Source: an uncultured delta proteobacterium (GTDB lineage Bacteria > Desulfobacterota > Binatia > DP-6). From it: a stretch of DNA of 64,000 nucleotides. The stretch covers positions 384,001 through 448,000 of the forward strand of contig CAWFFN010000005.1 of NCBI GenBank assembly GCA_963815115.1, written 5' to 3'. Below, piece by piece: positions 1 to 29,104 of the stretch (its first letter is position 1; each line of letters begins with the position of its first letter). The position numbers were made by a program, and so were the translations under genes. A model generated the notes under the pieces. The model saw only the letters and a program-made list of their open reading frames with translations. It did no database searches and was not told where the DNA came from.

Positions 1-774
1 GTGGATGGACGTGAAGCCGAACCAGTTCTGGCGGATGCCGCGTTCCGCCATCTGGCGGTACAGCGACACGGTGCGCTCGTGCGACAGCTTGCCGTGGCCG
101 TAGAAGTTCTCGTCGCTCCAGATCATGCCACGATACTGCCCCTTGAACTCCTCGAGCTCGTCGAGCAGGTCGTCGACGGGGCGTTCGCGATATTTCCGGC
201 CCTGGAAGAGCGGGATGAAGCAGAACTCGCAGGTGTACGGGCACCCCGCCGACGCGATCGCCGCCGTGAAACGGTAGCCGTACTTGCGCCGCAGGAACTC
301 CCGGTCGGGTCGGATGTCCCGGAGGATGGACAGATCGTGCAGCCCGCCGTCGTAGTGCGGCTGGAGCTCCCCGCGCTCGAAGTCCCGCACCAGCCTGGGC
401 CACGCGGTGAACGCCTCTCGCGTGCAGATCGCATCCGCGAAGGGCCGCGCCTCCTCCGGGTAGGAGGTGGCGTGCCAGCCGCCGATGGCCACCGGGATCC
501 CCTGCGCCCGGCACGCCGTGGCGATCTGGTAGGCGCGCGGCGCCTGGTGGCTCATCGCGGTGATCCCCACCAGATCCGCGCCGTCGAACGTGATGCCGGT
601 CCCGTCCGCGGCGAGGGCCTGCTCCTTCATCTCGTCGATGATGTCGACCTCCCAGCCCGCGGGCGTGAGCGCCTTCAGGTAGGCGAGGCCGAGCGGCATC
701 TGCGTCAGGACCGAGACGTTCTCCTCGCCGACGTTGCCCGGCGGATGCGGGCTGATGAGCACCAGGCGCTTCAT
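1..774 (-). CDS. Cobalamin-binding radical SAM enzyme (third paralog), 5' part; runs off the left edge
   Basis: Missing from the ORF track because it has no stop in the window. Hand translation from ATG 774 (TGATG overlap with the upstream stop) gives MKRLVLISPHPPGNVGEENVSVLTQMPLGLAYLKALTP...GGWHAT...ASAGCPYTCEFC...DENFYG...NWFGFTSIH, with a CxxxCxxC motif and collinear with the two upstream paralogs. Confidence 0.93.
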   Translation of the reverse strand, partial: MKRLVLISPHPPGNVGEENVSVLTQMPLGLAYLKALTPAGWEVDIIDEMKEQALAADGTGITFDGADLVGITAMSHQAPRAYQIATACRAQGIPVAIGGWHATSYPEEARPFADAICTREAFTAWPRLVRDFERGELQPHYDGGLHDLSILRDIRPDREFLRRKYGYRFTAAIASAGCPYTCEFCFIPLFQGRKYRERPVDDLLDELEEFKGQYRGMIWSDENFYGHGKLSHERTVSLYRQMAERGIRQNWFGFTSIH

Positions 775-2315
775 CAGGCTTGCCCCACCGGCTGCTTGGC
801 ATGCACGTTCTTGTAGATCGACATGAGCTTGGCCCGCTGCGGATGGTTGAAGTCCTCGAAGGCGAGCGGCACCGCGACCTGCGCCGGATTGGCCTCGTGG
901 GGGTACGCACCCGAGTCGTAGAGCTTGTGTAGCTCCATCAGGTTGGCCTCGAAGACGACCTTCCAGTCGAGGTTGATGCGGTAGGCGAACATCGAGTTCA
1001 CGAGGTTGCCGGTGGCGGCGTAGGTCTGCTTGAAGCGCTCGCGCAGCTTCTCCTTGCCGTAGATGTTGTCGTACACGTAGGTGAGCCCCTCGATGAAGCG
1101 CTCGAGCGACATGTTCTTCAGCCGATGCACGAGGTGACCGGAGTTGTAGTAGTACCAGTCGTACGGGAAGTTGGTGCGGAAGATGCGCTGCTCGCTGCTC
1201 AGGCGGTCGAAGAGCTCGGTGCGCACCATGGGCGTGTAGATGCCGAAGGTGCAGACGTCCATTCCGGTCTCCCAGACGGCGTCGACGACCTGCTTGAAGG
1301 TGTCTTCCTTGTCGAAGTCGGTTCCGAAGATCACCGAGCTCCACACGATCAGCCCGTGCCGGTGGAGGTTGCCGAAGCAGTGCCGGTAGCTGTCGAGGAA
1401 CGAGGTCGAAGCCTTCTTGGCGATGCCGATGTTGACCGACTTGTGCATCTTCTTGAGCGTGTCGTAGTCGAGTGACTCGATGCCCATCAGGATGCCGAGG
1501 CAGCCGCTCTTCGCCATGTAGTCGAGCACGACGTCGTCCTGGGTGACGTTGAGCGACGTGAAGCCGAACCAGTTCTTCTTGAGATCGCGCTCCGCCCACC
1601 CCTTGAAGAGCTTGCGGCAGCGTTCCTGCGAGTCGGGCGTGTAGCCGTAGAAGTTGTCCTCCGCGAGCATGAGCCCGCGGTAGTCGGTGTGGGCGAGCTC
1701 GTTCCAGACGTCCTCCGGCGGGCGCTGGCGGTACTTGCGGCCCTGGATGAAGGGGACACAGCAGAAGTCGCACTTGAACGGGCAGCCGCGGGTCGTGATG
1801 ATCGACGAGTACTTGTAGCGGTACTTGTCGCGCAGCCACTCCCGGTCGGGGTGGATGTCCCTGAGCTCCTCGAGCGGCGTCGGGCCGCCGTGGTAGGTGG
1901 GCTGGAGACGCCCGCCATCGAAGTCGGCGAGCACCTGCGGCCACACCCGCTCGGCCTCGCCGATGACCACGCTGTTCACGTGGGCGCTCGCCTCCTCCGG
2001 GAGAATGGTCGCGTGGGCGCCGCCGGCGACCGTCGGCACGCCCGCCTTGCGACACGCCTCGGCGATCTCGTAGAGCCGCGGCACCTGGTAGGTCACGGCC
2101 GTGATCCCGACGAGGTCGGCATGGCCGAAGGTCAGGTTGCCCTGCGCGTCGACGGCCCGCTCGAGGGTCTCGTCGATGACGTCGACCTCCCATTCGTCGC
2201 GCGGCGTCAGCGCGGCGATGTAGGCGAGGTTGAGCGGCATCTGCACGATGACCGAGATGTTCTCCTCGCCGAAGTGCTTCTCGGGATAGGCGTTGATCAG
2301 AACGAGTCGCTTCAT
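774..2315 (-). CDS. Cobalamin-binding radical SAM enzyme, 513 aa
   Basis: C-terminal part of ORF 774..3512. True start MKRLVLINAYP at 2315 behind an AAGGGAG RBS. B12-binding N-terminus (MPLNLAYIAA...GGAHAT), TTRGCPFKCDFC cluster motif, EDNF and GIES motifs. Confidence 0.94.
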   Translation of the reverse strand: MKRLVLINAYPEKHFGEENISVIVQMPLNLAYIAALTPRDEWEVDVIDETLERAVDAQGNLTFGHADLVGITAVTYQVPRLYEIAEACRKAGVPTVAGGAHATILPEEASAHVNSVVIGEAERVWPQVLADFDGGRLQPTYHGGPTPLEELRDIHPDREWLRDKYRYKYSSIITTRGCPFKCDFCCVPFIQGRKYRQRPPEDVWNELAHTDYRGLMLAEDNFYGYTPDSQERCRKLFKGWAERDLKKNWFGFTSLNVTQDDVVLDYMAKSGCLGILMGIESLDYDTLKKMHKSVNIGIAKKASTSFLDSYRHCFGNLHRHGLIVWSSVIFGTDFDKEDTFKQVVDAVWETGMDVCTFGIYTPMVRTELFDRLSSEQRIFRTNFPYDWYYYNSGHLVHRLKNMSLERFIEGLTYVYDNIYGKEKLRERFKQTYAATGNLVNSMFAYRINLDWKVVFEANLMELHKLYDSGAYPHEANPAQVAVPLAFEDFNHPQRAKLMSIYKNVHAKQPVGQA

Positions 2316-2326
2316 CGCGTCTCCCT

Positions 2327-3775
2327 TCAGTGCGCCGTGGCGGCGGTGCTCGCGCTGCCCACGCTCACTCGCTCGGCGGGGTAGGCGCCCGAGTCGTAGA
2401 GGCCGTGCAGGTTGCGGAGAATCTGCTCGAACACGCGCTGCCAGTCCTGGCCGACGCGGTACGCGAACAGCGCGGTGCGCGGGTTGCCGGTCGCCTGGAG
2501 CGAGCGTCGGAACCGGGCGCGGAGCGCCTCCTTCGTGTACAGGTGATCGTAGACGTAGTGCATGCCCGTGATGAAGTCCTCGAGGGTCATCTTGTCGAGC
2601 TTGTACGTCACGTGATCGGTCCCGTAGTGGAACCAGTCGTTGGGGTAGTTGGTGCGGAAGACGCGGCCCTCGCCGAGAAGGCGCTTGTGCATCGGCGTAT
2701 TCGGCAGCGGGGTGCTGATGCCGTAGGTGAGCACGTCGAGGGAGTTCTCGAGAATGTAGTCGACCATGCGACGGAAGCAGTCCTTGTCGTCCCCGTCCGC
2801 GCCGAAGATGACCGAGCCCCACACGATCATGCCGTGATCGTGGATGTTCTTGATCGAGTCGGCCATGCGGTCGACTCCGAGGCGGAGGTTGACGTCCTTC
2901 ACCATCTTCTTGAGCACGTCCTCGCTGTTCGACTCCAGGCCGATGAGGAATCCGAAGCAGCCCGATTTCGCCATGGCGTCCAGCATCACCAGGTCCTGGC
3001 CGGTGGCGAGGGTCGAGAACCCGAACCAGTCCTTCCACATCTTGCGCTCGACCATGCCCTGGAAGAGCTGGCGCGCCCGCTCGTTGGCTCGCTTGCTGTA
3101 GCCGTAGAAGTTGTCCTCGGCGAGCATCAGGCCCTTGTACTTGGTCGCATCCATCTCGGCCCAGACGTCCTCCACCGGCCGCTCCCGGAACTGGCGCCCC
3201 TGGAACACGGGAACGCTGCAGAACTCGCAGCGGAACGGGCATCCCTTCGTGGTGACGATCGACGAGTACTTGTAGCCGTACTTCTCGCGGCAGAACTCCC
3301 GGTCCGGGTGGACCCGGCCGACGAGCTCGAGGGAAGGCAGCCCGCCGTCGTAGAGCGGCTGGAGGTCGCCGCGCGCGAAGTCGTCGAGGATCGACCGCCA
3401 CGTCAGCTCGGCCTCGCCGGTGCACACCGCGTCGGCGTGGCGTTGCGCCTCTTCGACCATCGCCGAGACGTGAATGCCGCCCATCACCACCTTCATGCCG
3501 CGCCGCCGGCATGCGTCCGCGATCTGGTACGCCCGCGGGCTCTGGTAGGTGAGCGACGTGATGGCGACGAGGTCCGCGTCGAAGATCGGCTCGCCGCGCT
3601 CGTCGAGCGCGAGCTCGATGGTCTCGTCGACCAGGTCACGCTCCCATTCGTCCTGCGGCGTCAGCGCGGCCAGGTAGGCGAGATTCAGCGGCATCTGCAC
3701 GATCACGGAGATGCTCTCCTCGCCGTGTCGCTCCGGCGGATGGGGGTTGACGAACACCACCTTGCGTCGATCCAT
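2327..3775 (-). CDS. Cobalamin-binding radical SAM enzyme, 482 aa
   Basis: C-terminal part of ORF 2327..4717. Start MDRRKVVFVNP at 3775 with an AGGAGGGAG RBS. Motifs MPLNLAYLAA, GGIHVS, TTKGCPFRCEFC, EDNF, GLES. Confidence 0.94.
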   Translation of the reverse strand: MDRRKVVFVNPHPPERHGEESISVIVQMPLNLAYLAALTPQDEWERDLVDETIELALDERGEPIFDADLVAITSLTYQSPRAYQIADACRRRGMKVVMGGIHVSAMVEEAQRHADAVCTGEAELTWRSILDDFARGDLQPLYDGGLPSLELVGRVHPDREFCREKYGYKYSSIVTTKGCPFRCEFCSVPVFQGRQFRERPVEDVWAEMDATKYKGLMLAEDNFYGYSKRANERARQLFQGMVERKMWKDWFGFSTLATGQDLVMLDAMAKSGCFGFLIGLESNSEDVLKKMVKDVNLRLGVDRMADSIKNIHDHGMIVWGSVIFGADGDDKDCFRRMVDYILENSLDVLTYGISTPLPNTPMHKRLLGEGRVFRTNYPNDWFHYGTDHVTYKLDKMTLEDFITGMHYVYDHLYTKEALRARFRRSLQATGNPRTALFAYRVGQDWQRVFEQILRNLHGLYDSGAYPAERVSVGSASTAATAH

Positions 3776-3789
3776 GCGACACTCCCTCC

Positions 3790-5265
3790 TTACGCTAGCG
3801 CGGTCGTCCCGGCGTTGCCGTGGACTGCTCGCGGCGCCGCCGGCTCCCGCGCGGCGATCCGGTTCGCCACCCGCCAGCCGGAGGCGACCACCGCACACAC
3901 ACCGGGGCCCGGGATGGTCCAGTGACCGGTGAGGTACAGATTCTCGATCGGGGTCTCGTGCGCCAGGCGCCGCATCCCCGACTGCTCGGGAATCACGGCC
4001 CAGCCGTAGGGCGCACCACAGAAGTTGCTCGTCCGCTCCGCCCCGGTCGGGGGATGTGCGACCGTCATCACCTCCACGTGGCGCCGCAGCCCCGGAACGA
4101 AGTCCTCGATGCGGTCGAGCACGTCGCGCACCTTGGTCTCCTGCACGGCACGCCAGTCGCCCGCGGCCTCCTCCTCGGGCGCGAGCGAGGCGACGACGGT
4201 CATCGTGTGGTACCCCGGCGGGGCCATCCCGGGCTCGATCTGCGTCGGTGAAGAGACGTAGAGCCAGGGTCCGCCCAGCTCCTCGGAGAAGAAATAGAAG
4301 CCGCGCGCGAGGCGCTCGGGTTGGCAGCGCGCGCTCACCCCGAGGTACAGGAGCACGAACGGCGAGCTCGCGCGCAACGTCCGCAGTCGTTGCGCGTACG
4401 CCGGGTCCACGGCGCCGTCGAGCAGGCGGAAGAACGTCTGTGCCGGGTCGATGTTCGAGACCACGGCGCCGGCCGCGATCTCGCGTCCATCGGCGAGCCG
4501 GACGCCCGCGGCCCGCGTGCCGTCGAGCAGCACGTCGCGCACGGCCGTCGAGACCAGCAGGTCGCCTCCGCTGGCGACGAACCTCGCCGCGATGGCGTCG
4601 GCGAACGCCTGGGTGCCCCCGCGGGGATAGTAGGCGCCGTCGCGCCAGTAGTTGACGATCATCTGGCACATCCCGACCGCCGAGAGCTCCTGGGGAGGCG
4701 ATCCCAGGTAGCCCCACTGCCCCGACAACCCGAGCTTGAGGCGGGGATCGTCGAAGAAGGCGTCGAGCATCTCCGCGAACGTCGAGTCCTGGTAGCGGAT
4801 CAGCGTCGGGCTCTCCCGGCGCTCATCGAGCAGCGCGCGATAGAGCTTGACGATCTCGGCGAAGAACGCGTCGATGGCGCGACGCTCCCGGGGAAAGCGC
4901 TCCGCGAGCAACGCCGCGAAGGCATCCAGCCTCGTCGGAACCGGGAGCGACCAGGACGGGAAGACCAGCGTGTCCATGGGGTCGAGGCGCACGAAGTCGC
5001 ACTCGATCCCCAGAGCACGCAGGCAGCTGCCCACGATGCTCAGGCGGCCGCACCCGCTGATGTGGTGCACGGCGACGTCGAACGTGAATCCCTTCTGCGT
5101 GAACGACGAGCAGCAGCCGCCGGGCTGGGCGCTGCGCTCCACGATCAGCGTCCGCTTGCCCCGCTGCGCGAGCTGCGTGCCGCACACCAGCCCGCCGATA
5201 CCGCCGCCGACGACGACGGCGTCGTAGTCCCCCCGTACCTCGACTCGCGCGGTCCGGCCGTCCAT
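3790..5265 (-). CDS. Phytoene desaturase (CrtI)/retinol saturase-like FAD-dependent oxidoreductase
   Basis: N-terminal VVVGGGIGGL...ERSAQPGGCCSSF dinucleotide-binding motif and C-terminal ENLYLTGHWTIPGPGV motif. Confidence 0.9.
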   Translation of the reverse strand: MDGRTARVEVRGDYDAVVVGGGIGGLVCGTQLAQRGKRTLIVERSAQPGGCCSSFTQKGFTFDVAVHHISGCGRLSIVGSCLRALGIECDFVRLDPMDTLVFPSWSLPVPTRLDAFAALLAERFPRERRAIDAFFAEIVKLYRALLDERRESPTLIRYQDSTFAEMLDAFFDDPRLKLGLSGQWGYLGSPPQELSAVGMCQMIVNYWRDGAYYPRGGTQAFADAIAARFVASGGDLLVSTAVRDVLLDGTRAAGVRLADGREIAAGAVVSNIDPAQTFFRLLDGAVDPAYAQRLRTLRASSPFVLLYLGVSARCQPERLARGFYFFSEELGGPWLYVSSPTQIEPGMAPPGYHTMTVVASLAPEEEAAGDWRAVQETKVRDVLDRIEDFVPGLRRHVEVMTVAHPPTGAERTSNFCGAPYGWAVIPEQSGMRRLAHETPIENLYLTGHWTIPGPGVCAVVASGWRVANRIAAREPAAPRAVHGNAGTTALA

Positions 5266-5269
5266 CGCG

Positions 5270-6496
5270 TCAGCCCGTCGGGCAGGCCGAGAGCAGCAGG
5301 GCGGCGCAGTGCCCGGAGTAGGAGGAGGCGGTGACGAGCGCGCGGGTCACCTCCATGCGCCGCGCCACGTTCGGGACGCAATCGACGGCGCACGCCTCGT
5401 CCGCGACCCGATGGTTGATCGTCGGAGGCACCACCTGCTCCGTCAACGCCAGCAGCGCCGCCGCGGCTTGGAGTGAGCCCGACGCGTCGAGACACTCCCC
5501 GCACATGGACTTGATGGCGCTCACCGGCGGGCACGACGCGTCGCCGTCGAAGGCGGCGCGCAGGGTGCTGGCCTCGAGCCGGTCTCCCCCGGGGGTGGAA
5601 TTGGCGCCGCTGAAGACGCACCAGCCGTCCGGGGACGCGGGCGGCGTGCGCCCGAGCGCAGCGCGGATGACCCGACGGCCGTTCGCCACCGGATCCCCGC
5701 CACGCGGCCGGAAGCCGTTCCCGTATCCGGTGACCTCGCCGTAGATCCGGGCGCACCGCTCACGGGCACGCGACAGCGGCTCGAGGAACAGCAGACAGCT
5801 GCCCTCGCCCAGCACGACGCCGTCCCGGCGACGGTCGAACGGGGCGCACAGTCCGCTGCCGGAAAGCGCGCCCGTCCCCGCGAAGCCCCGGTAGACGTCT
5901 TCGCCGAGACCGAACACGCCCCCCGCCAACATGGCTCCCGCCCGACGCAGCCGGAGGAAGTCTGTGGCGTACCCGAGCGCGTCGAGGCCGCTCGTCTCGC
6001 CCGTGGCGATCGTCGCGTTCGGGCCCGTCACCCCGAGGAGAATGGAGACGCGGCTCGCCGGCGCGTTCAGCACCGTGTTGGGAAACTCCATGGGGTTCAC
6101 GTACGCCGGGCCTTCTCGCAGGGCCTCCGTGTCGAACGCGGCGATGCTGCCGATGCTCCCGTAGGTCGAGCCCACGGCGATGCCGGTCTGGTCATCCCGC
6201 ACGGGAGCCTCGCCGCCCTGCAGGACGCCGGCGTCCTCGAGCGCGAGCTTGGCCGCGCACGCGAGCAGCAACGTGGTCCGATCGAAGTGCCGGATGCCCT
6301 TGGTCCCGATGAAGGGCGCCGGCGAGAACTCGGCGATCTCCCCGGCCAGCCGGCTCCGGCCGTTCCCGGGGTCGAAGAGGGAGAGGGGACGAAGACCGGA
6401 GGCACCTGCCGCGAGGCTGCGCCAGAACGCCTCCCGCCCTGCGCCCAGGGCGGAGACGACCCCAAGACCGGTCACGACGATACGTTCCACGATCAC
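5270..6496 (-). CDS. Non-catalytic FabF-like ketosynthase (chain-length-factor-like)
   Basis: KS fold (RIVVTGLGVVS, PFDRRRDGVVLGEG). The Cys position reads TGETSG (Glu); the His motifs are replaced by SGANSTPGGD and KSMCGECL. GTG start overlaps the fabF stop (GTGA); GTG 6490 is an alternative start. Confidence 0.88.
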   Translation of the reverse strand: MIVERIVVTGLGVVSALGAGREAFWRSLAAGASGLRPLSLFDPGNGRSRLAGEIAEFSPAPFIGTKGIRHFDRTTLLLACAAKLALEDAGVLQGGEAPVRDDQTGIAVGSTYGSIGSIAAFDTEALREGPAYVNPMEFPNTVLNAPASRVSILLGVTGPNATIATGETSGLDALGYATDFLRLRRAGAMLAGGVFGLGEDVYRGFAGTGALSGSGLCAPFDRRRDGVVLGEGSCLLFLEPLSRARERCARIYGEVTGYGNGFRPRGGDPVANGRRVIRAALGRTPPASPDGWCVFSGANSTPGGDRLEASTLRAAFDGDASCPPVSAIKSMCGECLDASGSLQAAAALLALTEQVVPPTINHRVADEACAVDCVPNVARRMEVTRALVTASSYSGHCAALLLSACPTG

Positions 6497-7731
6497 CCCT
6501 CGAACCGGCGCAGGACCAGGCAGCTGTTGTTCCCCCCGAAGGCGATCGCGTTGTTGAGCGCGACGGTGAGCGACCGCCTGCGCGCTGCGTTCGGCACGTA
6601 GTCGAGATCGCAATCCGGATCGGGCGTCTCGTAGTTCATGGTCGGCGGTACGACCCCGTGGCGCAGCGCCAGCACCGAGGTGATCGCCTCGATCGCACTC
6701 GCCGCGCCCATCGTGTGACCGATCATCGACTTGGTCGAGCTCACGCAGAGCTCGTAGGCGTGCCGCCCGAAGACCCGCTTGATGGCGCGGGTCTCCACCT
6801 TGTCGTTCACGGGCGTGCCCGTGCCGTGGGCGTTGATGTAGTCGACCTCGGCGGGCGCGATGCGCGCCGACTCGAGCGCCAGCCCGATCGCACGGCTGAT
6901 GCCGTCCCCCTCCGGGTCCGGCGCCGTCATGTGGTGGCCGTCGGCGCTGATGGCGTATCCCAGCATCTCCGCGAGAATCGGCGCGCCCCGGGTGAGGGCC
7001 CCGTCGAGGGACTCCAGCACGACGATGCCGGCGCCCTCGCCCACCAGGATGCCGCGCCTCCCGCGATCGAACGGCTGGCACCGCTCCGGCGCCACGGAGC
7101 CCAGCCGGGCGAACCCGGTGAACGCCACCCGGGAGAACGGGTCCGTCCCGCCTGCCAGCATCGCGTCCGCCCTGCCGAATCTGATGGCATCGAAGGCCCA
7201 GCCGATGCTGTAGTTCCCCGCCGCGCAGGCGGTGGGAATCATCACGTTCGGACCCGAGAGGCCGAGCCAGTGCGCGATGTGGGCGGGAATCATGGCGGCG
7301 GGATGGTGGCGCAACGTCTGCCACGGGATTGCGTCCTCGCCGTCGGAGACCCTCGCCTGGTCCGCCTGTTCGAGAATCTGGATCTCGCCGCACGTGGTCC
7401 CGACGGACACCCCGACCGTGGCCTCCTCGTTGCCGCCACCGCCGAGCCCGGCATCGGCAAGGGCCAGGTGCGTCGCGGCCACGGCCAGCTGCGAAGCGCG
7501 CCCCATCCCCGAGGGCGGCGGCGCCCCGACGATCCCTTCGAAGTCGAAGTCGTGGACCTCGCAGCCCTGGTGGACCTTGTAGCGCGAAGTGTCGAAGCGC
7601 TCGATCTCCGTCACCCCGGAGGCGCCGGACAGCGCGGCCGGCCAGAAGCGCTCGCGCCCGATCCCGATGGGGGTGACCATGCCCACACCGGTTATCACCA
7701 CGCGGCGGGCGCGCTGGCCCCCGTCGGTCAT
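6493..7731 (-). CDS. fabF: 3-oxoacyl-ACP synthase II (active ketosynthase)
   Basis: Intact Cys-His-His triad: PTACAAG, NAHGTGTPVND, KSMIGHTMGAAS; C-terminal AFGGNN. Confidence 0.93.
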   Translation of the reverse strand: MTDGGQRARRVVITGVGMVTPIGIGRERFWPAALSGASGVTEIERFDTSRYKVHQGCEVHDFDFEGIVGAPPPSGMGRASQLAVAATHLALADAGLGGGGNEEATVGVSVGTTCGEIQILEQADQARVSDGEDAIPWQTLRHHPAAMIPAHIAHWLGLSGPNVMIPTACAAGNYSIGWAFDAIRFGRADAMLAGGTDPFSRVAFTGFARLGSVAPERCQPFDRGRRGILVGEGAGIVVLESLDGALTRGAPILAEMLGYAISADGHHMTAPDPEGDGISRAIGLALESARIAPAEVDYINAHGTGTPVNDKVETRAIKRVFGRHAYELCVSSTKSMIGHTMGAASAIEAITSVLALRHGVVPPTMNYETPDPDCDLDYVPNAARRRSLTVALNNAIAFGGNNSCLVLRRFEG

Positions 7732-8195
7732 CCTGGTCGATGCTCCCGGAGCGTATCGAGCCCGCGGCGATCCACCGCCGCGAACGTCAGCTTCGCCCTG
7801 GCCACCGGCTCGCCCTCGACCAGCGCCACCCCCCGCACGATGGCGGCGGTGGAGATGACCTTCTCCGCCACGACGTCGAAGAGCAGCTGATCCCCCGGGG
7901 TGACGGGCTTCAGGAACCGCGCCTCGACCGCACCGAGCAGGAAGACCTTGTCCGCATGTTGCGGCTGGTTACCGGCTCGGAAGAGCAACAGCCCGCATTG
8001 GGCGAGGGCTTCGACCATCACGGTGCCCGGCATCAGCGCAAGATCCACGAAGTGTCCCGGGAAGAAGTACTCGTTGCCGGTGACGTTCTTGAGGCAACGG
8101 ATGCGTTTGCCTTCCTCCAGCTCGAGAACGCGGTCCACGAACAGAAACGGGTAGCGATGGGGGATCAGGCGCGTGATCTCGTCGAACGAGATCAC
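7728..8195 (-). CDS. fabZ: 3-hydroxyacyl-ACP dehydratase
   Basis: IPHRYPFLFVDRV, FFPGHF...MPG...EALAQ and PVTPGDQL motifs; 4-nt overlaps with both neighbours. Confidence 0.93.
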   Translation of the reverse strand: MISFDEITRLIPHRYPFLFVDRVLELEEGKRIRCLKNVTGNEYFFPGHFVDLALMPGTVMVEALAQCGLLLFRAGNQPQHADKVFLLGAVEARFLKPVTPGDQLLFDVVAEKVISTAAIVRGVALVEGEPVARAKLTFAAVDRRGLDTLREHRPG

Positions 8196-8467
8196 AGAGC
8201 GGCCTCCAGCTTCCCTTGCTCCCGCAGCATCTCCTTCACGAGCGTGATGGCAGCGCTGAGCGTCGTCACATCGACGATGCGTTCCTCCGGCACCTCGATA
8301 CGATACTTGCGCTCGAGGGTGGCAACGATCTCGAGCGCGAGCAGCGAGTCGAGCCCGACCTCCTCGAAGAGATGGCTGTCACGCTGCGCCCACAGCTCCT
8401 CCTCCGGCTTCTCGGAGACCTCGGCCACGACCTCGGTCACGGCGCGCTCCACGTTGTCTGCGTACAT
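8192..8467 (-). CDS. Acyl carrier protein (ACP1), 91 aa
   Basis: Acidic small protein with the phosphopantetheine motif LFEEVGLDSLLALEIV. Start MYADNVE at 8467 (or GTG 8470) after GAGGAGG. Confidence 0.92.
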   Translation of the reverse strand: MYADNVERAVTEVVAEVSEKPEEELWAQRDSHLFEEVGLDSLLALEIVATLERKYRIEVPEERIVDVTTLSAAITLVKEMLREQGKLEAAL

Positions 8468-8664
8468 CACCGTGCTTGACCTCCTCAGCCTCTGCCCGCT
8501 GATTCGACCTGCGACATGCCCGCAGAGTGCGTCCCTCTCGGAACCCACGTGTGGCGTGCGGACCCCGAATGGTCTGTGCGTGTCGCCTTGGAACCGGCCC
8601 GTCTCCGTTAACCCGCGATCCACGCATGGTCAAGCAGTTCTCGATTTTCTGGAACGACCCCAAA

Positions 8665-8681
8665 CTTGGAGTGTCTCTAAG
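8665..8681. promoter_or_regulatory. Imperfect palindrome, candidate TetR operator upstream of the ACP-FabZ-FabF-rSAM sub-operon
   Basis: CTTGGAG-TGT-CTCTAAG (one mismatch) overlaps the TetR stop codon at the edge of the only sizeable (~200 bp) intergenic gap of the cluster. A minus-strand TTGACC-N17-TAACGG lies at ~8632-8604. Confidence 0.4.
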
Positions 8682-9312
8682 AACGTGCCCCCGTCCGCCG
8701 GCGCTGCGGGCGGCGATCGGTCGTGTCGATCGCGGACGGGGCGACACCCGACAGGAAGATGGCCGCACCACGGTGCAGGCGCTCGGTGAGCGGCTGACCG
8801 CCGTCGCCGTGCAGCCATCGCAAGATGATGGCGTAGTAGGTCCCGATGAAGATGTCCGCCAGCTCGTGCGGATCGTATTCGGTGCTGACCTCGCCCCGGC
8901 GCTGCCCCTCGTGCAAGAGCGCCGCGCTCAGGTCGGAAAGGATGCGTTCGGCACGCACGTTGCCGAAGTTCAGAGCGCTCCGGGTGAACAGCGTGCGGTA
9001 GAACCGCTTGTCGGCCTGCAGCCCCCGCCCCATCGCCTCGAGCAGGCGCCTCACCTTCTCCGCCGTGGGGGCGTCCCGCCGCGCCTCGTGCTCGAGCATC
9101 TCCTGGTATCGCCCCACGGTGTCCTCGGCAGCCTGCTGCAGGATGGCGTCCTTGCTCGGGAAATAGTTGAAGAACGTCGCCTGGCTGATCTCCAGCTGTC
9201 CGATGATGTCGTCGATCGTCACCTCGTCGAACCCACGCTCCATGAAGAGCTGGATCGCGTTGGCGAGGATCTTACCGCGCAGCTTGTTCTTCTTCTCGGC
9301 CCGTAAGCCCAT
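8677..9312 (-). CDS. TetR/AcrR family transcriptional regulator
   Basis: N-terminal HTH: LFMERGFDEVTIDDIIGQLEISQATFFNYFPSKDAIL. Confidence 0.93.
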   Translation of the reverse strand: MGLRAEKKNKLRGKILANAIQLFMERGFDEVTIDDIIGQLEISQATFFNYFPSKDAILQQAAEDTVGRYQEMLEHEARRDAPTAEKVRRLLEAMGRGLQADKRFYRTLFTRSALNFGNVRAERILSDLSAALLHEGQRRGEVSTEYDPHELADIFIGTYYAIILRWLHGDGGQPLTERLHRGAAIFLSGVAPSAIDTTDRRPQRRRTGARS

Positions 9313-9354
9313 TTTCGCCTTCCGTGGTTCTCCGCCCGCGAGCGATCGCCCGAA

Positions 9355-10599
9355 TCACGGCTCGAACCGTCGCACGACGAGCGTCGAGTTGTTTCCTCCG
9401 AAGGCGAAGGAGTTGCTCAGTGCCGTCCGGATCTCCTGGCTGCGGCTCGCGTTCGGCACGTAGTCGAGGTCGCAGTCGGGATCGGGCACGTCGTAGTGCA
9501 GGGTCGGGGGAACCACCCCTCTCCGCACCGCGAGACAGCAGATGGCCGCCTCGAGCGCAGCCGATGCCCCGGCGGTGTGGCCCACGATGGACTTCGTCGA
9601 GCTCACCGGGATCGCGTGGGCGCGCGCGCCGCACACCCGTTTGATGGCGAGGGTCTCGATGTGGTCGTTCAGGTACGTCCCGGTCCCGTGGGCATTGATG
9701 TAGTCGACCTCGTCCACGCCGATTCCCGCGTCGTCCAGCGCCCGCTGCATCGCCAGCGCCATGCCGTGGCCGTCCGGATCGGGCGACGTGATGTGGTGCG
9801 CGTCGCAGCTGGCACCGAACCCGGCGATCTCCGCAAGCGGCTCCGCCCCGCGGGCGACGGCGGAGCGGAGCGTCTCGAGGACCAGGAAGGCGGCCCCGAT
9901 GCCCGGGGTGAACCCCATGCGCTCCTTGGTGAACGGCCTGCACGGCTGCGGATCGATCACCCCGAGGCGATATGCCCCGACCAGCCCGGATGCCTGGATG
10001 GCCTCCCACCCTCCCGCCAGCATGCAGTCGGCCTGCCCGGTGCGCAGCAGGTCGACCGCGTGCCCGAGGGCGAAGTTGCTCGAGGCGCACGCCAGGGAGA
10101 ACACCATGCTCGGACCACGCAGCCCGAAGCGGCGGGTCAGCAGCCGTGCCACCGCGGGAAACGGATAGGCGGCGAGCGTCCCGGCGGGCAGGTCGGGGAG
10201 CCCCCCGGCGCGGCGGCGGCGCACGAGCTGCTCGAGGAGGCCGAGCTGGCCGAAGTTGCTCCCCAGCGAGAGCCCCACGGCCGCCCCGTCGCGTTCGAGA
10301 CCGGCGTCCCGCAGCGCCTCTCGGGCGGCGATCACGGGTTGGGCCGCGAAGAGCTCACCATCGGCGAGCGCCACGTCGTGCGCGGACGCGTAGGCGTCGA
10401 TCTCCTCGATCGCGGGTGCCCCCACGTATCCGGTGTACTCGCCCGGGTCGAAGCCGTAGCGCGCGAACGTGGCCGCGAGCTCCGCCGCCGGTCGCAAGCT
10501 CGTCCTGCCCTCCACGATGGCGTTCCAGAGCGGCGCCTGCCCGATCCCGGCGGGCGAGACGATGCCCATTCCCGTCACGATGATGGGTTGGCCGTCCAT
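9355..10599 (-). CDS. FabF-like ketosynthase (second active KS)
   Basis: Triad intact: SLACASS, NAHGTGTYLND, KSIVGHTAGAS; C-terminal SFAFGGNN. Confidence 0.92.
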   Translation of the reverse strand: MDGQPIIVTGMGIVSPAGIGQAPLWNAIVEGRTSLRPAAELAATFARYGFDPGEYTGYVGAPAIEEIDAYASAHDVALADGELFAAQPVIAAREALRDAGLERDGAAVGLSLGSNFGQLGLLEQLVRRRRAGGLPDLPAGTLAAYPFPAVARLLTRRFGLRGPSMVFSLACASSNFALGHAVDLLRTGQADCMLAGGWEAIQASGLVGAYRLGVIDPQPCRPFTKERMGFTPGIGAAFLVLETLRSAVARGAEPLAEIAGFGASCDAHHITSPDPDGHGMALAMQRALDDAGIGVDEVDYINAHGTGTYLNDHIETLAIKRVCGARAHAIPVSSTKSIVGHTAGASAALEAAICCLAVRRGVVPPTLHYDVPDPDCDLDYVPNASRSQEIRTALSNSFAFGGNNSTLVVRRFEP

Positions 10600-10609
10600 C
10601 CGGCTCCTG

Positions 10610-11344
10610 TCATTCGAGAAGATCGACGAGCTTCTTCTTCACGAGCGGGCGCGAGACCAGCGAGGCGAACAGCTTCGCCTCACGCTCCGCGTCCACCTCG
10701 TTCACCAGCTCCAGGGCGGCGAGGGCCGCAGCCGGCTCCGCGCGCGCGATCGCGCCTGCCAGCCTGCGCGTCTCCTCGGCCACCTGATCCGGTGCGACGC
10801 ACCGGTTGACGAGCCCGATGCGATGAGCCTCCGGCGCGCTGACCGTCTGCCCGCTCAGGATCATCTCGAGCGCCTTCGCGCGTCCGACGAGCCGCGCCAG
10901 GCGGCCGATGCCGCCCAGAGCCGGCACGAAGCCGAGCGACAGCTCGGGAAACCCGAAGCGCGCCCGGCTTCCGCACACGCGCAGGTGGCAGGCGAGCGCG
11001 ATCTCGAGTCCCCCGCCGAGGCAGAGCCCGTTGACGGCCGCGATGAACGGCTTCGGGAGGCCGAAGAACTCGTCGAGCAGCGCGCGGCCGGCCCGGGCCT
11101 GTCGCTCCGCCTCGTCGGCGGACGGAAAGCGTGCGATCGCACTCAGGTCGCCGCCGACGGAGAACACCCGGGGCAGGCCGGTGACGATGACGACGCGCAC
11201 GGTGCTCGCGGCGACGATCGGCCGCGCCTCCTCGAGCTGCGCGAAGAGCGCCGGGGTCAGCGCATTCACGGGCGGGTTGTCGAGCCGCACGACGGCCGTG
11301 CTGCCCTCGACCACCGTCTCGACCAGCCTCCGCGGATCAGCCAT
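10610..11344 (-). CDS. Enoyl-CoA hydratase/isomerase (crotonase) family protein
   Basis: LDNPPVNAL, FSVGGDL, AVNGLCLGGGLEIALAC and FGFPELSLG, with both catalytic Glu positions present. Confidence 0.92.
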   Translation of the reverse strand: MADPRRLVETVVEGSTAVVRLDNPPVNALTPALFAQLEEARPIVAASTVRVVIVTGLPRVFSVGGDLSAIARFPSADEAERQARAGRALLDEFFGLPKPFIAAVNGLCLGGGLEIALACHLRVCGSRARFGFPELSLGFVPALGGIGRLARLVGRAKALEMILSGQTVSAPEAHRIGLVNRCVAPDQVAEETRRLAGAIARAEPAAALAALELVNEVDAEREAKLFASLVSRPLVKKKLVDLLE

Positions 11345-12506
11345 CGTCCCTGCGCACGCGCTCCAGCAGGGAGCGCGTGGGTTGGTAGCGACCGCCGAGG
11401 CTCGCCTCCAGCGCGGCCAACCTGGGCTCCAGGAGCGTCGGGTCGAGCTCCCGGATCTTCTCGAGCGGGCCCTCGTCCGTTCCGACGACCTCGCGCAGGA
11501 TGGCGTCGATCTCGTCGCGCTCGCCCAGACCCTGGGTGAGACAGCAGAGATACTCGTCGATGAGTCGCAGCCAGATCCGCCCGGGGATGTCCTCTCCCGG
11601 CTCGGGCCGCGGCGCGACGTCCGATTCCGCGAGCAGGGCGAGCAGACGCGGGTTCGCTCCCCGACCCCGGTCTCCGTACAGGAAGATCCCGCTCTTGCTC
11701 TTCCGTCCCAGGTGGCCCTCGGCGCGCAGCGTGCTCAGGATGCGGCGGACGCCGCCGTCGTCGGCGGCCAGCGAGGATCCCTCCCCGGTGAAGACGTCGA
11801 GGGCGACGTCGATGCCGACGAGATCGAGTGTCGACAGCGGGCCCAGCGACATCCCCGCGTCCGTCATCTGCGCGTCGACGGCGGCAGGGGCGGCGCCTCC
11901 CGCGCACACGGCCAGGCCCTCCGCGATGTAGCCCGCGAGGAGGCGATTCACGACCGAGCGCCGGACCACGAAGGGGCGCTTGCCGAGCGAGCGACACCAG
12001 GCCGCGATGTCCGCCACCGCCGACGGCGCCGTCCGCGAAGCGGGAATGATCTCGACCACCGTGGTCAGCCTGACGGGCGCGAGGAAGTGCGTGCCGACGA
12101 AACGCGCCGCGGCGGGAAGACCGTCGCCGAGCACCTCCAACGAGAGCTCGGACGTGGTCGAGGTCAGGATGGTGCGCTCGGGACAGGCGCGCGACAGCTC
12201 CGAGAGGACCCGGCGCTTGGCGGTCGGATCCTCCGCGACCGCTTCCACGGCGATGTCGACGTCCCGAAAGTCGGAAAGGTCCTGCGTGACGCGTACCCGA
12301 TCGAGGAGCTCCGCCACCGTCGAGGCCGCCAGCCGGCCGTGGTCGCGTCGCCGCTCCAGCCGCCGGCGGACCCCGGCCCGGAAGGCCGCGCCCGATTCGG
12401 GCCGCCGCGCGAACAGCGTGAGCGGCATGCCCCGGTCGGCCAGCAGATCCGCGAGACCGCCGCCGATCTGTCCGAGGCCGACGATCCCCACCCGCTGCCT
12501 AGTCAA
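11337..12506 (-). CDS. 3-hydroxyacyl-CoA dehydrogenase family protein
   Basis: VGIVGLGQIG Rossmann motif, EAVAED...K, GTHFLAPV, GPL...DLVGIDV, LGRKSKSGIF. TTG start overlaps the ACP2 stop. Confidence 0.88.
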   Translation of the reverse strand: MTRQRVGIVGLGQIGGGLADLLADRGMPLTLFARRPESGAAFRAGVRRRLERRRDHGRLAASTVAELLDRVRVTQDLSDFRDVDIAVEAVAEDPTAKRRVLSELSRACPERTILTSTTSELSLEVLGDGLPAAARFVGTHFLAPVRLTTVVEIIPASRTAPSAVADIAAWCRSLGKRPFVVRRSVVNRLLAGYIAEGLAVCAGGAAPAAVDAQMTDAGMSLGPLSTLDLVGIDVALDVFTGEGSSLAADDGGVRRILSTLRAEGHLGRKSKSGIFLYGDRGRGANPRLLALLAESDVAPRPEPGEDIPGRIWLRLIDEYLCCLTQGLGERDEIDAILREVVGTDEGPLEKIRELDPTLLEPRLAALEASLGGRYQPTRSLLERVRRDDG

Positions 12507-12825
12507 TCTCGACCTCGCCCCGGAGGATCCGCGTGATCAGGTCGATCAGCTCTCCCAGCGTCTCCACCGGGTTGCGGCGCCCGAAGCGCGCCAGCTTCCG
12601 GGTGTCGACCGTGATCTCGTACTGTCCCTGGAGCTCCTCGAACAGGGCGAGGAAGAGCAGCGAATCGAGCCCGAGATCGTCGAACAGGTGCGCCTCGTCG
12701 CGCATCTCGGCGATGTCGCGTTCCAGCTCGTCGGCGAGGAAGCGCTTCACCTGCGCGCTCACCTGCGCACGCTCCGCGGAGCGCGCGGGGCCGCCGACGT
12801 ACGTCGAGCTGCTCTCGTCCGACAT
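12499..12825 (-). CDS. Acyl carrier protein (ACP2), 108 aa
   Basis: HLFDDLGLDSLLFL motif; start MSDESSS at 12825 after GGAGGA. Confidence 0.9.
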   Translation of the reverse strand: MSDESSSTYVGGPARSAERAQVSAQVKRFLADELERDIAEMRDEAHLFDDLGLDSLLFLALFEELQGQYEITVDTRKLARFGRRNPVETLGELIDLITRILRGEVEID

Positions 12826-12841: not shown

Positions 12842-14065
12842 CTACTGGAGCGACTCGCTCCTCCTGACGACGAGGCTCGCGGCGCGGTCGCAGTCGAAGC
12901 TGTTGACGACCGCGGTCCGGACCGCATGGGGCACGCTGCGACCGCGCACGTGCGCCGGCACGATGCAGTCCGGGTCCTCGTCCTCGCAGTTCACGGTCGG
13001 CGGAACGCGGTCGTGCTGGGCGGCGAGCAGACAGGCGACGACCTGGAGCATGCCGGAGGCGGCGCCGGCATCGCCGAGCATCGACTTGATGGCGCTGGTG
13101 CGAAGTCGGCGCGGCTCGGCGGCGAACAGCCGCCGGAGCGCCATGGCTTCACCGCGATCGCCGGACGGGGACGAGCCGGCGCCGGCCGCGACCCAGTCGA
13201 CCTCGTCGGCACCGGTGCCGGCCGCCGCCAGAGCCCGCTGCATTGCCTCGGCGATGGCCTCTGCCGTCGCGAGGACCTCCTCGCCCGTCTCGACGGGCAC
13301 GCTGCCGTACCCCGCGACCTCGCCGTACACCCGGGCACCGCGGCCCCGCGCGGCCTCGGCGCTCTCGAGGACGAGGACTCCGCAGCCCTCGGCGAGGATG
13401 AGCCCGCGCCGCCGCCGGTCGAACGGACGCGGCGCCATGGTGTCTCCGAGCACGCCCGTGCGCCAGAACCCCTCGACGAGGGGCGGAGACAGCACCTCGA
13501 GGCCGCCGACCAGGAGGGCGCGGGCGCGCCCGCAGCGCAGCGCGGTGAGTCCGTGCTGGAGCGCGTCCAGCGACGAGGTGGCGCCGTTGGTCACGGTCGT
13601 GTTGAGACCCCGGATGCCGAAGCGAATCGCCAGATTGCCGCCGGCGATGTTGATGAACAGGTTGGGAAAGCGCAGCGCATTCGTGCGCTCGCCCGGCGAG
13701 AGCAGGCTCTCGTAGAAGCCGACGCAGTCCCCGACGTTGCTGAAGCTCGATGCGACCACCACCCCGATGTCCTCGGCCGCGTCGGGAGAGATCTCCAGGC
13801 GTGCGTCCCGCCGCGCGAGCTCGGCCGTGCACAGGAGGAGCCGGGTCGCGTCGTTCAGGTACTTGAGCCCTTTCGACCCGATGATGTCCTCGGGCCGGAA
13901 CTCGCCGAGCTGCCCCGCGTAGCGATAGGCCTCGGGCAGCGCCTCGAGCCCTGCGATCGGCCTCACGGCGAGCCGACCTTCGGCCAGACCGTCCCAGAAG
14001 GCGTCGCGACCGACGCCGAGCGGACTGATCACTCCGATGCCCGAGATCACGACGCGGTCACCCAT
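12842..14065 (-). CDS. Non-catalytic FabF-like ketosynthase (second chain-length-factor-like protein)
   Basis: KS fold (RVVISGIGVISPLG, RPFDRRRRGLILAEG). The Cys position reads NGATSS; the His motifs are replaced by AGAGSSPSGD and KSMLGDAG. Confidence 0.88.
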   Translation of the reverse strand: MGDRVVISGIGVISPLGVGRDAFWDGLAEGRLAVRPIAGLEALPEAYRYAGQLGEFRPEDIIGSKGLKYLNDATRLLLCTAELARRDARLEISPDAAEDIGVVVASSFSNVGDCVGFYESLLSPGERTNALRFPNLFINIAGGNLAIRFGIRGLNTTVTNGATSSLDALQHGLTALRCGRARALLVGGLEVLSPPLVEGFWRTGVLGDTMAPRPFDRRRRGLILAEGCGVLVLESAEAARGRGARVYGEVAGYGSVPVETGEEVLATAEAIAEAMQRALAAAGTGADEVDWVAAGAGSSPSGDRGEAMALRRLFAAEPRRLRTSAIKSMLGDAGAASGMLQVVACLLAAQHDRVPPTVNCEDEDPDCIVPAHVRGRSVPHAVRTAVVNSFDCDRAASLVVRRSESLQ

Positions 14066-15436: not shown

Positions 15437-15783
15437 CGGGGCGACCCCCGCTCCCAGTAGTTGACGGTTGCCGTGGCGAGCGCGAGGGCGTCGCCGAGCG
15501 CGCACCGCTCCGAGCGCAGGACCGCGACCCACTCGGGCCGGAAGGTCCGATCACCCGGCCCGAACCGCTCCCAGACCGCGGTCATGCGCTCGGCCGTCGC
15601 GTCCGACTCGGCCTCGACGAGGTCGTCCCGCTCGGCCACGAGCTGGAGCCCGCGGATCGCCTCGTCGATCTGCAGCAGCTCGGCCTGCGCGAGCGCGCCG
15701 GCGCGCATCGCGGCCAGGCAGATCAGCGCAAAGAGCACGAGGTCGTGCTCGCCCTGCGCGGCGGCCTGATCGCGATTCGGCAT
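15433..15783 (-). CDS. Hypothetical protein, 116 aa
   Basis: C-terminal part of ORF 15433..17313 (MPNRDQAAAQGEHDLVLFAL...). It exactly fills the gap between ino1 (5 nt spacer) and the ligase (ATGA overlap). No family recognised. Confidence 0.7.
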   Translation of the reverse strand: MPNRDQAAAQGEHDLVLFALICLAAMRAGALAQAELLQIDEAIRGLQLVAERDDLVEAESDATAERMTAVWERFGPGDRTFRPEWVAVLRSERCALGDALALATATVNYWERGSPR

Positions 15784-16958: not shown

Positions 16959-17170
16959 CCACCTGTCCCGTCTGGCTTCGCTTCTCCGCTTCCGAACGAC
17001 CACGGCCGCGTCCCTGCCAGCGGACCCGGCCCTCGTCTCCCGGCGCACCTTGCACGCGGTGATGGGTATTGGCAACACTCGCAGGCGGGGGATGAGACGG
17101 TCGGGCGGAGGAGGGCGAGCCGGCCGTCGGTTTCCGGGCCTGCTGGGCTTCTGGTATCAGCCAGGCCAGC

Positions 17171-18113: not shown

Positions 18114-18121
18114 CGACGTCG

Positions 18122-24190: not shown

Positions 24191-24298
24191 CGCGACGACG
24201 CGTGCCCCTTGCGTGGGTGCTCGAGCGTGTCCGTCCGGTCGCGCATCGCCAAGGCCGTGGTTCTCTCTGACCCATTCGGGCTGGCTGCGCCAGCCGGG

Positions 24299-25960: not shown

Positions 25961-25979
25961 GGGGGTCGGTTGGTACCCG

Positions 25980-25999
25980 GACAAACGTTTGTTTGTCAA
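25980..25999 (-). promoter_or_regulatory. Palindromic operator overlapping a TTGACA -35 box (copy 1)
   Basis: GACAAAC-GTTT-GTTTGTC-AA on +. The minus strand reads TTGACA-N18-TACCAA, 9 nt before the ATG at 25960. A near-identical copy is at 31715..31734. Confidence 0.72.
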
Positions 26000-29094: not shown

Positions 29095-29104
29095 GCGTCG
29101 CTGG

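Follow-up and report, generated by a model that had tools for sequence, protein, structure and literature searches.

The window analyzed here, a 64,000-nucleotide stretch of an uncultured delta proteobacterium placed in Binatia (G000:C5:384001-448000; contig CAWFFN010000005.1), opens inside a minus-strand locus that is a roughly 23-kb operon joining counterparts of two separate anammox gene clusters, namely, Cluster I (kuste3603-3608 in Kuenenia), which has been proposed for the synthesis of ladderane lipids, and the kuste2803-2805 cluster. The operon genes are orthologous to those of anammox bacteria and lie in sister position to them, in a host that is not itself an anammox bacterium; new here is that this locus is the nearest non-anammox relative of both clusters, and that it holds them in fused form. 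We consider it likely that the operon makes a specialized acyl chain related to the product of the anammox clusters.

Ladderane lipids were reportedly described in a Nature paper in 2002, and their biosynthesis is said to have been open since. According to the available parts of Dietl 2023 and of the Granatino 2026 preprint, work on these lipids has been held back by the lack of genetic access to the producers, by a radical S-adenosylmethionine (SAM) enzyme that was not obtained heterologously and by the view that Cluster I is exclusive to them.

The window lies within a 1.8-Mb contig of a 6.9-Mb genome (12 contigs, 70% GC). Genes were called by Pfam scans of the long minus-strand frames together with inspection of start codons and ribosome-binding sites, which gave the following counterpart of Cluster I and the two rSAM genes after it, with the acyl carrier protein (ACP), ketosynthase (KS), chain-length-factor-like (CLF) and B12-binding radical SAM (rSAM) genes in order of transcription:

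8192-8467, minus strand: ACP of the amxACP type, with the Ser in GLDSL (Pfam PP-binding).
7728-8195, minus strand: FabZ-type dehydratase of the amxFabZ type (Pfam FabA).
6493-7731, minus strand: KS1, a ketosynthase of the amxFabF2 type with its Cys-His-His triad intact.
5270-6496, minus strand: CLF1, a ketosynthase homologue without the triad, of the amxFabFmut type, with Glu/Gly/Glu at the Cys-His-His positions.
3790-5265, minus strand: PDH, a CrtI/phytoene-dehydrogenase/amine-oxidase-like flavoprotein of the kuste3607 type (Pfam Amino_oxidase and NAD_binding_8).
2327-3775, minus strand: rSAM1, the counterpart of the anammox Cluster I rSAM (kuste3608 type; Pfam, and 57-63% identity to the anammox copies).
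774-2315, minus strand: rSAM2, a divergent paralogue inside the Cluster I rSAM family (Pfam).
1-774 (5' part), minus strand, running leftwards from 774 past base 1: rSAM3, with which the block matching the second anammox cluster begins (Pfam B12-binding, Radical_SAM and DUF4070).

This order (ACP, FabZ, active FabF, triad-less FabF, CrtI-like flavoprotein and three B12 rSAMs) had already been read from the letters in a preliminary description, and Pfam, start codons and residues agree with it. The same description had bounded the locus at 1-8467; the genes are there, but the cluster is wider, since the co-directional genes reach from some 6.4 kb beyond its left edge in the window (a fourth B12 rSAM, rSAM4) to a gene like myo-inositol-1-phosphate synthase (MIPS) at window 16958/17078. 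The junctions are tight, with 4-base overlaps linking ACP, FabZ, KS1 and CLF1 and gaps of 4-14 bases from there to rSAM3, the end of which lies 668 bases outside the left edge (L001:17332-18774). rSAM2 is 53% identical to rSAM1, and all four rSAMs carry the CxxxCxxC motif. Eight of the 10 translations that were looked up, rSAM2 included, have exact letter-for-letter entries in the public protein collection; the two without are an unrelated dehydrogenase and the ACP as called here, the start of which was picked by an AGGAGG-like site and does not occur in exactly this form in the collection.

The likeness to anammox Cluster I extends to every gene. A protein search with PDH gave 134 matches among 8000 scored candidates; among the matches listed (at least 120), 12 full-length clusters stood at 81-91% identity and about 55 at 44-60%, after which identity fell to 39% or less, and every organism-named member of the 44-60% tier was Brocadiales, Brocadia or Planctomycetes. 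When an alignment of these PDH proteins was used to scan genomes, one per species, 82 relatives came up, and 80 of them were kept. The full order ACP-FabZ-KS-CLF-PDH-rSAM was present in 63 of these 80 loci, the remaining 17 being mostly short or on contigs that end within the cluster, and 71 of the 80 have titles naming anammox genera, Brocadiales or Planctomycetota. Because the loci were fetched with PDH alone, the six-gene order in 63 of them is far beyond chance. Against these loci, the window proteins are 43-52% (ACP), 48-56% (FabZ), 53-59% (KS1), 44-51% (CLF1), 44-51% (PDH) and 57-63% (rSAM1) identical. The Kuenenia, Brocadia and Scalindua loci show ACP-FabZ-FabF-FabFmut-PDH followed by one B12 rSAM, which bears out the order that the preliminary description gave for kuste3603-3608 and agrees with the available parts of the published descriptions. 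Thus, the six genes of the window are contiguous and in the anammox order, and the second ketosynthase lacks Cys-His-His, as in the anammox clusters.

The proteins are also of the anammox-specific type and are not housekeeping paralogues. In all three anammox genomes compared (Brocadia, Kuenenia and Scalindua), the top match of KS1 is the Cluster I gene (56-58%), with the next best at 45-46% and the presumed housekeeping FabF at about 41-42%. Among solved structures in the PDB, the five top matches of FabZ are all amxFabZ (8AYI, 7QV0, 8AYB, 8AYC and 8AYD; 155-165 bits), compared to 118 bits for the best ordinary FabZ, and ACP matches 7auf (94 bits), 9s5i_E (82) and 7qv0_D (79), with ordinary ACPs at 33 bits or less. 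KS1 scores 544 bits with 9s5h_B, compared to 348 with FabF and 326 with 6kxd, an ishigamide-type KS, and CLF1 scores 359 bits with 9s5h_C, the next match having 216. We identified 9s5h_C as Brocadia amxFabFmut by its match of 839 bits with the Brocadia pituitae gene, on which the identity given to 9s5h rests. Together, these comparisons argue that the likeness to kuste3603-3608 is real orthology.

Three of the fetched loci call for separate comment. L037 (G379:C1), from the same genus, holds a copy of the cluster in many frame-shifted pieces, which looks like long-read indel error and not decay. L004, labeled Thermodesulfobacteriota, nests inside Scalindua, and L078, labeled Actinomycetota, is 80-98% identical to the window cluster; both labels are probably binning or labeling errors.

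Retrieval of the sequence left of the window (L001) revealed the counterpart of a second anammox cluster, which the preliminary description had missed. The end of rSAM3 is followed there by KS2, the triad-less CLF2 (Phe/Ser/Glu), the crotonase ECHb, FabG and the distinct rSAM4. In Brocadia and Scalindua, the second-best KS matches adjoin a CLF and a B12 rSAM, and the loci of Brocadia pituitae (L101) and Scalindua sediminis (L102) read rSAM-KS-CLF-ECH(-FabG), the same order as rSAM3-KS2-CLF2-ECHb-FabG, at identities of 57-59% (rSAM3), 51-54% (KS2), 39-41% (CLF2), 42-44% (ECHb) and 57% (FabG). The CLF of the second Brocadia cluster carries Phe/Asn/Asn/Cys/Lys/Glu, identical to the signature that Rattray 2009 gives for Kuste2805 (Table 2), and we therefore take the Brocadia locus as the kuste2803-2805 cluster, the rSAM of which (Kuste2803) was singled out in the same paper as a cyclization candidate. 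CLF2 has Phe, Lys and Glu in common with this signature, its middle residues being Ser/Ser/Ser in place of Asn/Asn/Cys, so that the arrangement of the kuste2803-2805 type, a B12 rSAM followed by a KS and by a triad-less KS with Phe at the Cys position, is present. The third cluster of Rattray 2009 (kuste3335-3352 type) was not located in Brocadia pituitae via the other KS matches, which led to a housekeeping cluster for the type II synthesis of fatty acids (FAS II) and an unrelated region. rSAM4 was rejected as an anammox link: each anammox genome has one homologue at 37-38%, isolated and without synteny.

The two clusters are more than 200 kb apart on the one chromosome of Brocadia pituitae, and are joined, as in the window, in a Spirochaetales-labeled metagenome-assembled genome (MAG; L065) and a Planctomycetota-labeled one (L077). 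In a Brocadiales-like MAG (L045/L088; G700:C91), PDH-rSAM1 adjoins FabG-CLF2-KS2-rSAM3 in the opposite direction. On a Blastocatellia-labeled MAG contig with 50% GC (G695:C236; L167-L169), Cluster I (5813-12020) and a second set (23597-29847) are 11.5 kb apart, both falling within 24 kb; the second set holds KS2-CLF2, an rSAM3-like gene (65%), a DUF374 gene and another rSAM (67% to rSAM1), and between both sets lie unrelated Uma2, MFS, molybdopterin oxidoreductase and Ser/Thr kinase genes. The joining or nearness of the clusters in several lineages is gene-neighborhood evidence that both work together. As a side observation, no hydrazine synthase was seen in the 1.9-Mb G700 bin, which may reflect incompleteness; genomes of its sister branches have hydrazine synthase.

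These results bear on the explanation that the locus is an ordinary highly reducing type II polyketide synthase (PKS) or aryl-polyene-like cluster of the kind called 'ladderane' by antiSMASH, its anammox likeness being generic. Surveys report such biosynthetic gene clusters (BGCs) across many non-anammox phyla, and KS/CLF with ACP, ketoreductase and dehydratase but no enoyl reductase is the logic of polyene-forming type II systems. However, all six genes of Cluster I and all five of the second cluster stand in the anammox order here, the margins over ishigamide and actinorhodin KS/CLF and over FabF are large, and PDH homologues outside the clade do not exceed 39% identity, so we regard a generic likeness as very improbable. 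What had been named in advance as speaking against an anammox connection, a grouping with ordinary FAS II enzymes or simple class B methylases, did not appear: the window proteins group with the anammox-specific paralogues, and trees, PDB and NCBIfam scores together place them away from the ishigamide/actinorhodin KS-CLF and the named class B methylases.

In phylogenetic trees, the window genes lie just outside a monophyletic anammox clade (SH-aLRT support of 98-100 across trees). In the PDH tree, the Cluster-I-type clade (98) has three parts, a Spirochaetales/Acidobacteriota/Planctomycetota-PNC17 group, the window group and the anammox clade (98), the sister of which is a Blastocatellia-labeled sequence together with a metagenome sequence; this tree was rooted on distant CrtI-like proteins, which were not cleanly split off by a single branch. 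The rSAM tree places rSAM1 with the Blastocatellia copy as sister (94) of the anammox clade (100), with rSAM2, on a branch of its own, and rSAM3 as older paralogues and rSAM4 in a separate family. We also built concatenated KS+CLF+rSAM trees, in which the paralogous triplets root each other, under LG+G4 (37 rows) and LG+C20+F+G4 (24 rows). Both models gave the same picture, with anammox Cluster I monophyletic (100) and the window triplet of the second cluster sister (99-100) of the anammox triplet; in the LG+C20 tree, the window and the Blastocatellia-labeled copy group together (90) and are jointly sister (97) of the anammox clade.

As the preliminary description had supposed, the host is not an anammox bacterium. 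HZS_alpha (PF18582) had no match in the genome, which is rated 100% complete, while the Brocadia pituitae positive control gave two strong matches; three of the best 120 listed RecA relatives are organism-named, two of them Candidatus Binatia (84-85%) and one 'bacterium', and the genome has 70% GC, compared to the 35-58% of the Planctomycetota-labeled loci. A binning or assembly artefact, in which anammox DNA had been wrongly joined to a Binatia genome, can be set aside almost with certainty. Some loci do carry ill-fitting taxonomic labels (L004 and L078), but the cluster stands 384 kb into a 1.8-Mb contig, has a GC content of 65-72%, is only 43-63% identical to the anammox proteins and is carried by two other genomes of the same genus, with one flank common to G310. 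Blastn placed the G000 match of this G310 flank about 15 kb more to the left.

Beyond the two anammox counterparts, the operon has additions: the paralogue rSAM2, the distinct rSAM4 and an upstream module that begins with the MIPS-like gene. In the window, the upstream genes and the adjoining transporter are as follows:

8677-9312, minus strand: TetR-family regulator inside the operon (Pfam TetR_N).
9355-10599, minus strand: KSb, a third active ketosynthase with Cys-His-His intact (Pfam).
10610-11344, minus strand: ECHa, a crotonase-fold enzyme (Pfam ECH_1).
11337-12506, minus strand: 3-hydroxyacyl-CoA-dehydrogenase-like reductase (Pfam 3HCDH_N/3HCDH).
12499-12825, minus strand: ACP2, a second carrier protein (Pfam PP-binding, 36 bits; ATG with AGGAGG upstream).
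12842-14065, minus strand: KSa, a third triad-less (CLF-like) ketosynthase homologue with Ala/Gly/Asp at the triad positions.
14069-15532, minus strand, true start probably 15397 or 15436: PaaK-like adenylate-forming ligase (Pfam AMP-binding and AMP-binding_C_2).
15789-17078, minus strand, probable start 16958: MIPS-like protein, the first gene of the operon (Pfam).
17171-19812, plus strand (divergent): ABC ATPase, MlaC-like lipid-binding protein and ABC-2 permease (Pfam).

KSa is 39% identical to CLF1. The TetR gene is retained in the same-genus loci L003 and L078, and L003 shows the same 330-base gap at the position of ACP2, between KSa and the hydroxyacyl dehydrogenase. The ligase matches phenylacetate-CoA ligase in the PDB with 139 bits and the MIPS-like protein inositol-3-phosphate synthase with 211 bits, and both have counterparts in the Spirochaetales-labeled L065 (63% and 64% identity, respectively). 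A phenylacetate-CoA-ligase-like gene had been named as part of an anammox candidate cluster, which was not supported: a PaaK-like counterpart was not found in four of the five anammox genomes searched, the fifth (Anammoxibacter) has only partial matches of 32-36%, and Rattray 2009 nowhere uses the word 'phenylacetate'. We accordingly rejected the PaaK-like and MIPS-like genes as an anammox link, neither having been found in the Brocadia, Kuenenia and Scalindua genomes; the MIPS-like gene has a single 42% match (G703) in one of the five.

The divergent ABC/MlaC transporter lies beyond the co-directional genes and reaches window 19812. G310, a genome of the same genus, retains the whole stretch from rSAM4 through the ABC-2 permease, with the ABC/MlaC trio beside the cluster at 81-88% identity; it does not keep the hydrolase and copper-monooxygenase-like genes found on the left or, on the right, the GDSL, MBOAT and amidohydrolase genes. 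The trio was not seen adjoining the cluster in other lineages. As conserved members, the transporter, GDSL, MBOAT and hydrolase genes were therefore rejected, only the trio recurring in G310 and none of them having been seen beside the cluster in other lineages. Further right, the window encodes a DUF5996 protein (25121-26965) and, next to it, a zinc alcohol dehydrogenase (26969-28123); from 46720 to 63999, the plus strand has very long frames.

The chemistry at the center of the operon would fall to the rSAMs and PDH, none of which belongs to a named family by score. rSAM1-4 stay below every NCBIfam cut-off, reaching 51-73 bits on TIGR04072 (rSAM_ladder_B12; cut-off 360) and at most 76 bits on the named cobalamin rSAM methylases (HpnR, PhpK family, TsrM type and KedN5 family; cut-offs 500-700), and the best solved structure for rSAM1 has only 48 bits. 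PDH scores 170 bits on crtI_fam (TIGR02734; cut-off 238) and 174 on the carotenoid isomerase model (587). Elsewhere in the genome, a B12 rSAM gene at G000:C8:155090-156442 has 342 bits on TIGR04072, where anammox copies have 323-330; it was rejected as a link, since it lies on another contig, is 31% identical to the Brocadia copy and shares no neighbors with it.

The rSAMs might be plain cobalamin-dependent C-methylases, the product then being a multiply methyl-branched unsaturated chain or a polyene pigment without new rings. The B12-binding and radical SAM architecture with CxxxCxxC suits this idea, tandem paralogues would suit repeated methylation, and the best sub-threshold NCBIfam matches include the PhpK family, the MCR glutamine C-methyltransferase and HpnR. 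However, none of these matches exceeds 76 bits against cut-offs of 251-775, the non-methylating BchE cyclase, AprD4 and HpnJ score similarly, and the rSAM family sits on its own long branch. We consider methylation without ring formation a possibility to be kept in mind, although an unlikely one.

Returning to an acyl chain related to the anammox product, the gene content allows a route to be sketched by analogy with what is described for anammox proteins. In the available text of the Granatino 2026 preprint, amxFabF2 pairs with amxFabFmut in a KS/CLF-like heterodimer; this decarboxylates malonyl-amxACP, with an apparent C6-C8 preference, and the available parts of Dietl 2023 give an apparent C6-C8 chain preference for amxFabZ too. 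By this analogy, a KS1-CLF1 heterodimer would prime by decarboxylation of malonyl-ACP and build a short chain on the dedicated ACP, each round of which would be processed by FabG and the FabZ-type dehydratase. PDH would desaturate or isomerize the chain, and rSAM1-3 would either form C-C bonds (ring closure) or C-methylate unactivated carbons, after which the modified chain may be lengthened by KS2/CLF2, ECHb and FabG. A starter or a second chain may come from the upstream module (ligase, KSb/KSa, ACP2, dehydrogenase and crotonase), and the MlaC/ABC system may move the finished lipid. The cluster encodes three KS/CLF sets, two reductases and three dehydratase-type enzymes but lacks an enoyl reductase, which makes enoyl or polyenoyl intermediates likely.

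Several points weigh against this reading. All trees came from 'quick' searches with SH-aLRT as their only support, and several rows were of deviant composition. At the triad positions, CLF1 has Glu/Gly/Glu, where four anammox loci have Val/Asn/Glu (as in the Cluster I CLF of Brocadia and of Kuenenia), Val/Cys/Glu or Glu/Asn/Asp. The chain could still be saturated by an enoyl reductase of the housekeeping kind, such as FabI. Methylation and ring closure are inseparable for the rSAMs, because these have no NCBIfam family and no close structure. CbiC, of corrin ring synthesis, was not found in the genome, despite its four or more cobalamin-type radical SAM genes, so that cobalamin must be imported; three cobalamin riboswitches are present (C5:839038, C5:842781 and C7:1134246), which suggest cobalamin uptake and salvage. 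The product may also differ from the anammox one, since the operon has more rSAM copies, and PaaK-like and MIPS-like genes are absent from the searched anammox genomes apart from the matches given above. Finally, as stated in the available parts of Dietl 2023 and of the Granatino 2026 preprint, the role of Cluster I in ladderane synthesis is itself inferred, and no member of the family, anammox included, has a known product.

True ladderane fatty acids, with concatenated cyclobutanes, would be the most far-reaching product, because this would end the exclusive tie of ladderanes to anammox bacteria. Both of the most favored anammox ladderane clusters are fully matched as the nearest outgroup of the anammox genes, ACP, FabZ and KS/CLF are of anammox-specific types, and relatives of the genome occur in soil-metagenome runs from 13 studies, mostly with small word shares. 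Against this stand the description of ladderanes as unique to anammox bacteria in papers including Dietl 2023, as far as its available parts go; the unproven role of Cluster I, already noted from the same source and the Granatino 2026 preprint; the observation in Rattray 2009 that Desulfotalea psychrophila has synteny with other Kuenenia clusters but yielded no ladderanes; the extra genes and different CLF residues of the window cluster; and the proposed role of the lipids in sealing the anammoxosome, for which an aerobic-capable soil bacterium would have no obvious use. On balance, we think ladderane production by this host improbable. Equally improbable is the broader idea that uncultured soil Binatia and some Acidobacteriota- and Spirochaetota-labeled lineages use this operon to produce ladderanes or polycyclobutane lipids close to them. 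If it were true, the pathway would be older and wider than anammox, inherited or acquired by the anammox lineage, ladderanes would be no exclusive anammox biomarker, and the fused operon would name a sufficient gene set for ring formation, namely, Cluster I plus the kuste2803-2805 block.

The distribution of the genes is patchy. In a sample of 401 genomes of the host class, a close PDH occurred in its own genus only, in two of the four other genomes of that genus, and two further genomes had PDH homologues at 37-38%; across the host phylum, 301 genomes gave no homologue beyond 36-37%. Complete cores are also present in Acidobacteriota-, Spirochaetales- and Planctomycetota-labeled MAGs, and HZS_alpha had no match in the genomes of L065, L066 and L067 and only a partial 35-bit match in that of L077. 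Outside the genus, the PDH proteins nearest to that of the window (P0013, P0014, P0017 and P0022) are 52-60% identical, with one relative contig (L104) of 3.5 kb and 76% GC, and further metagenome-contig cores have 54-76% GC, compared to 38-45% in anammox-type contigs. GC is 65-67% over the three rSAM genes (window 1-4000), while most of the window has 70-73%; at third positions, too, GC is lower there (0.77 in the frame holding rSAM1). This composition is a mild sign that the rSAM region may be of foreign origin, which would fit the patchy distribution, the cluster being found within its class only in the genus of the window.

The host is aerobic-capable, with four COX1 (haem-copper oxidase) genes, and has relatives in soil-labeled runs. 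The 22 public runs listed are all labeled soil metagenome; one held 40% of the sampled words, nineteen held 5-12% and the remaining two, additions from the same study, held next to none, and the parts left uncovered in these runs carry no meaning. Run X1 holds exact pieces of the window. One soil metatranscriptome has contigs 90-93% like several cluster genes; since the library may hold DNA and the source is a relative, this is only a hint that a relative's cluster may be expressed.

In the available parts of Dietl 2023, Cluster I is 'encountered exclusively' in ladderane producers, and the Granatino 2026 preprint, in its available parts, calls it 'unique to ladderane-producing bacteria'. This restriction to ladderane-producing (anammox) bacteria fails for the present host and for at least three other MAG lineages, so that complete copies of Cluster I exist in at least four non-anammox lineages. 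A literature search, outside of which lay subscription journals and supplements, gave no report of a complete Cluster I outside anammox, of its fusion with the kuste2803-2805 cluster or of either in Binatia. Either ladderane-like lipids are spread more widely, with a bearing on their use as anammox biomarkers in soils and sediments, or the product of Cluster I is a different one. The fused operon defines a testable gene set for pathway work and a new comparative handle, and its high-GC versions from an aerobic-capable bacterium offer expression work fresh sequences, particularly for the radical SAM enzymes.

Among known systems, those with the KS/CLF logic alone are the more distant. Aryl-polyene clusters have the same KS/CLF logic, and carbocycle chemistry on type II PKS-like machinery is known from cispentacin. 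The cispentacin models (AmcF/AmcG and AmcE; NF058662/NF058663), as named by NCBIfam, are a precedent for KS-like and FabZ-like proteins that build a carbocycle on an ACP; KS1 and FabZ score 255 and 105 bits on them, compared to cut-offs of 325 and 140. The highly reducing type II PKS for ishigamide (Iga11/Iga12), for the ketosynthase of which 6kxd is the entry family cited in the available text of the Granatino 2026 preprint, is alike in its KS with inactive CLF, ACP, ketoreductase and dehydratase and in having no enoyl reductase. However, KS1 is nearer to amxFabF2 than to 6kxd by the scores given above, such systems are without the flavoprotein and B12 rSAM set, and neither KS nor CLF was nearest to the ishigamide or aryl-polyene type, the trees holding no aryl-polyene sequences.

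The antiSMASH 'ladderane' BGCs, which surveys report in many phyla without showing genes in common, and the clusters of Desulfotalea psychrophila, which are syntenic with other Kuenenia lipid clusters in a bacterium where no ladderanes were found (Rattray 2009), resemble other clusters or the KS only, whereas here the genes of two clusters are all matched, at 39-63% identity; a Desulfobacterales-labeled PDH homologue is only 32% identical. Closer is the kuste2803-2805-type cluster (in Kuenenia a B12 rSAM, FabF and a triad-less 'FabB'), with which the window shares the order rSAM-KS-CLF-ECH-FabG and a CLF with Phe at the Cys position and Glu at the second His position; it follows directly after Cluster I here and lies at the distance given above from it in Brocadia. 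Closest is anammox Cluster I itself (Rattray 2009, and the available parts of Dietl 2023 and of the Granatino 2026 preprint), with the same six genes in the same order, 43-63% identity and a triad-less CLF. The window differs from it in a Binatia host without the HZS domain, in genes that branch outside the anammox clade with a GC content of 65-72%, in a CLF with Glu/Gly/Glu, in two more paralogous rSAMs after the first and in its fusion to the second cluster and the upstream module.

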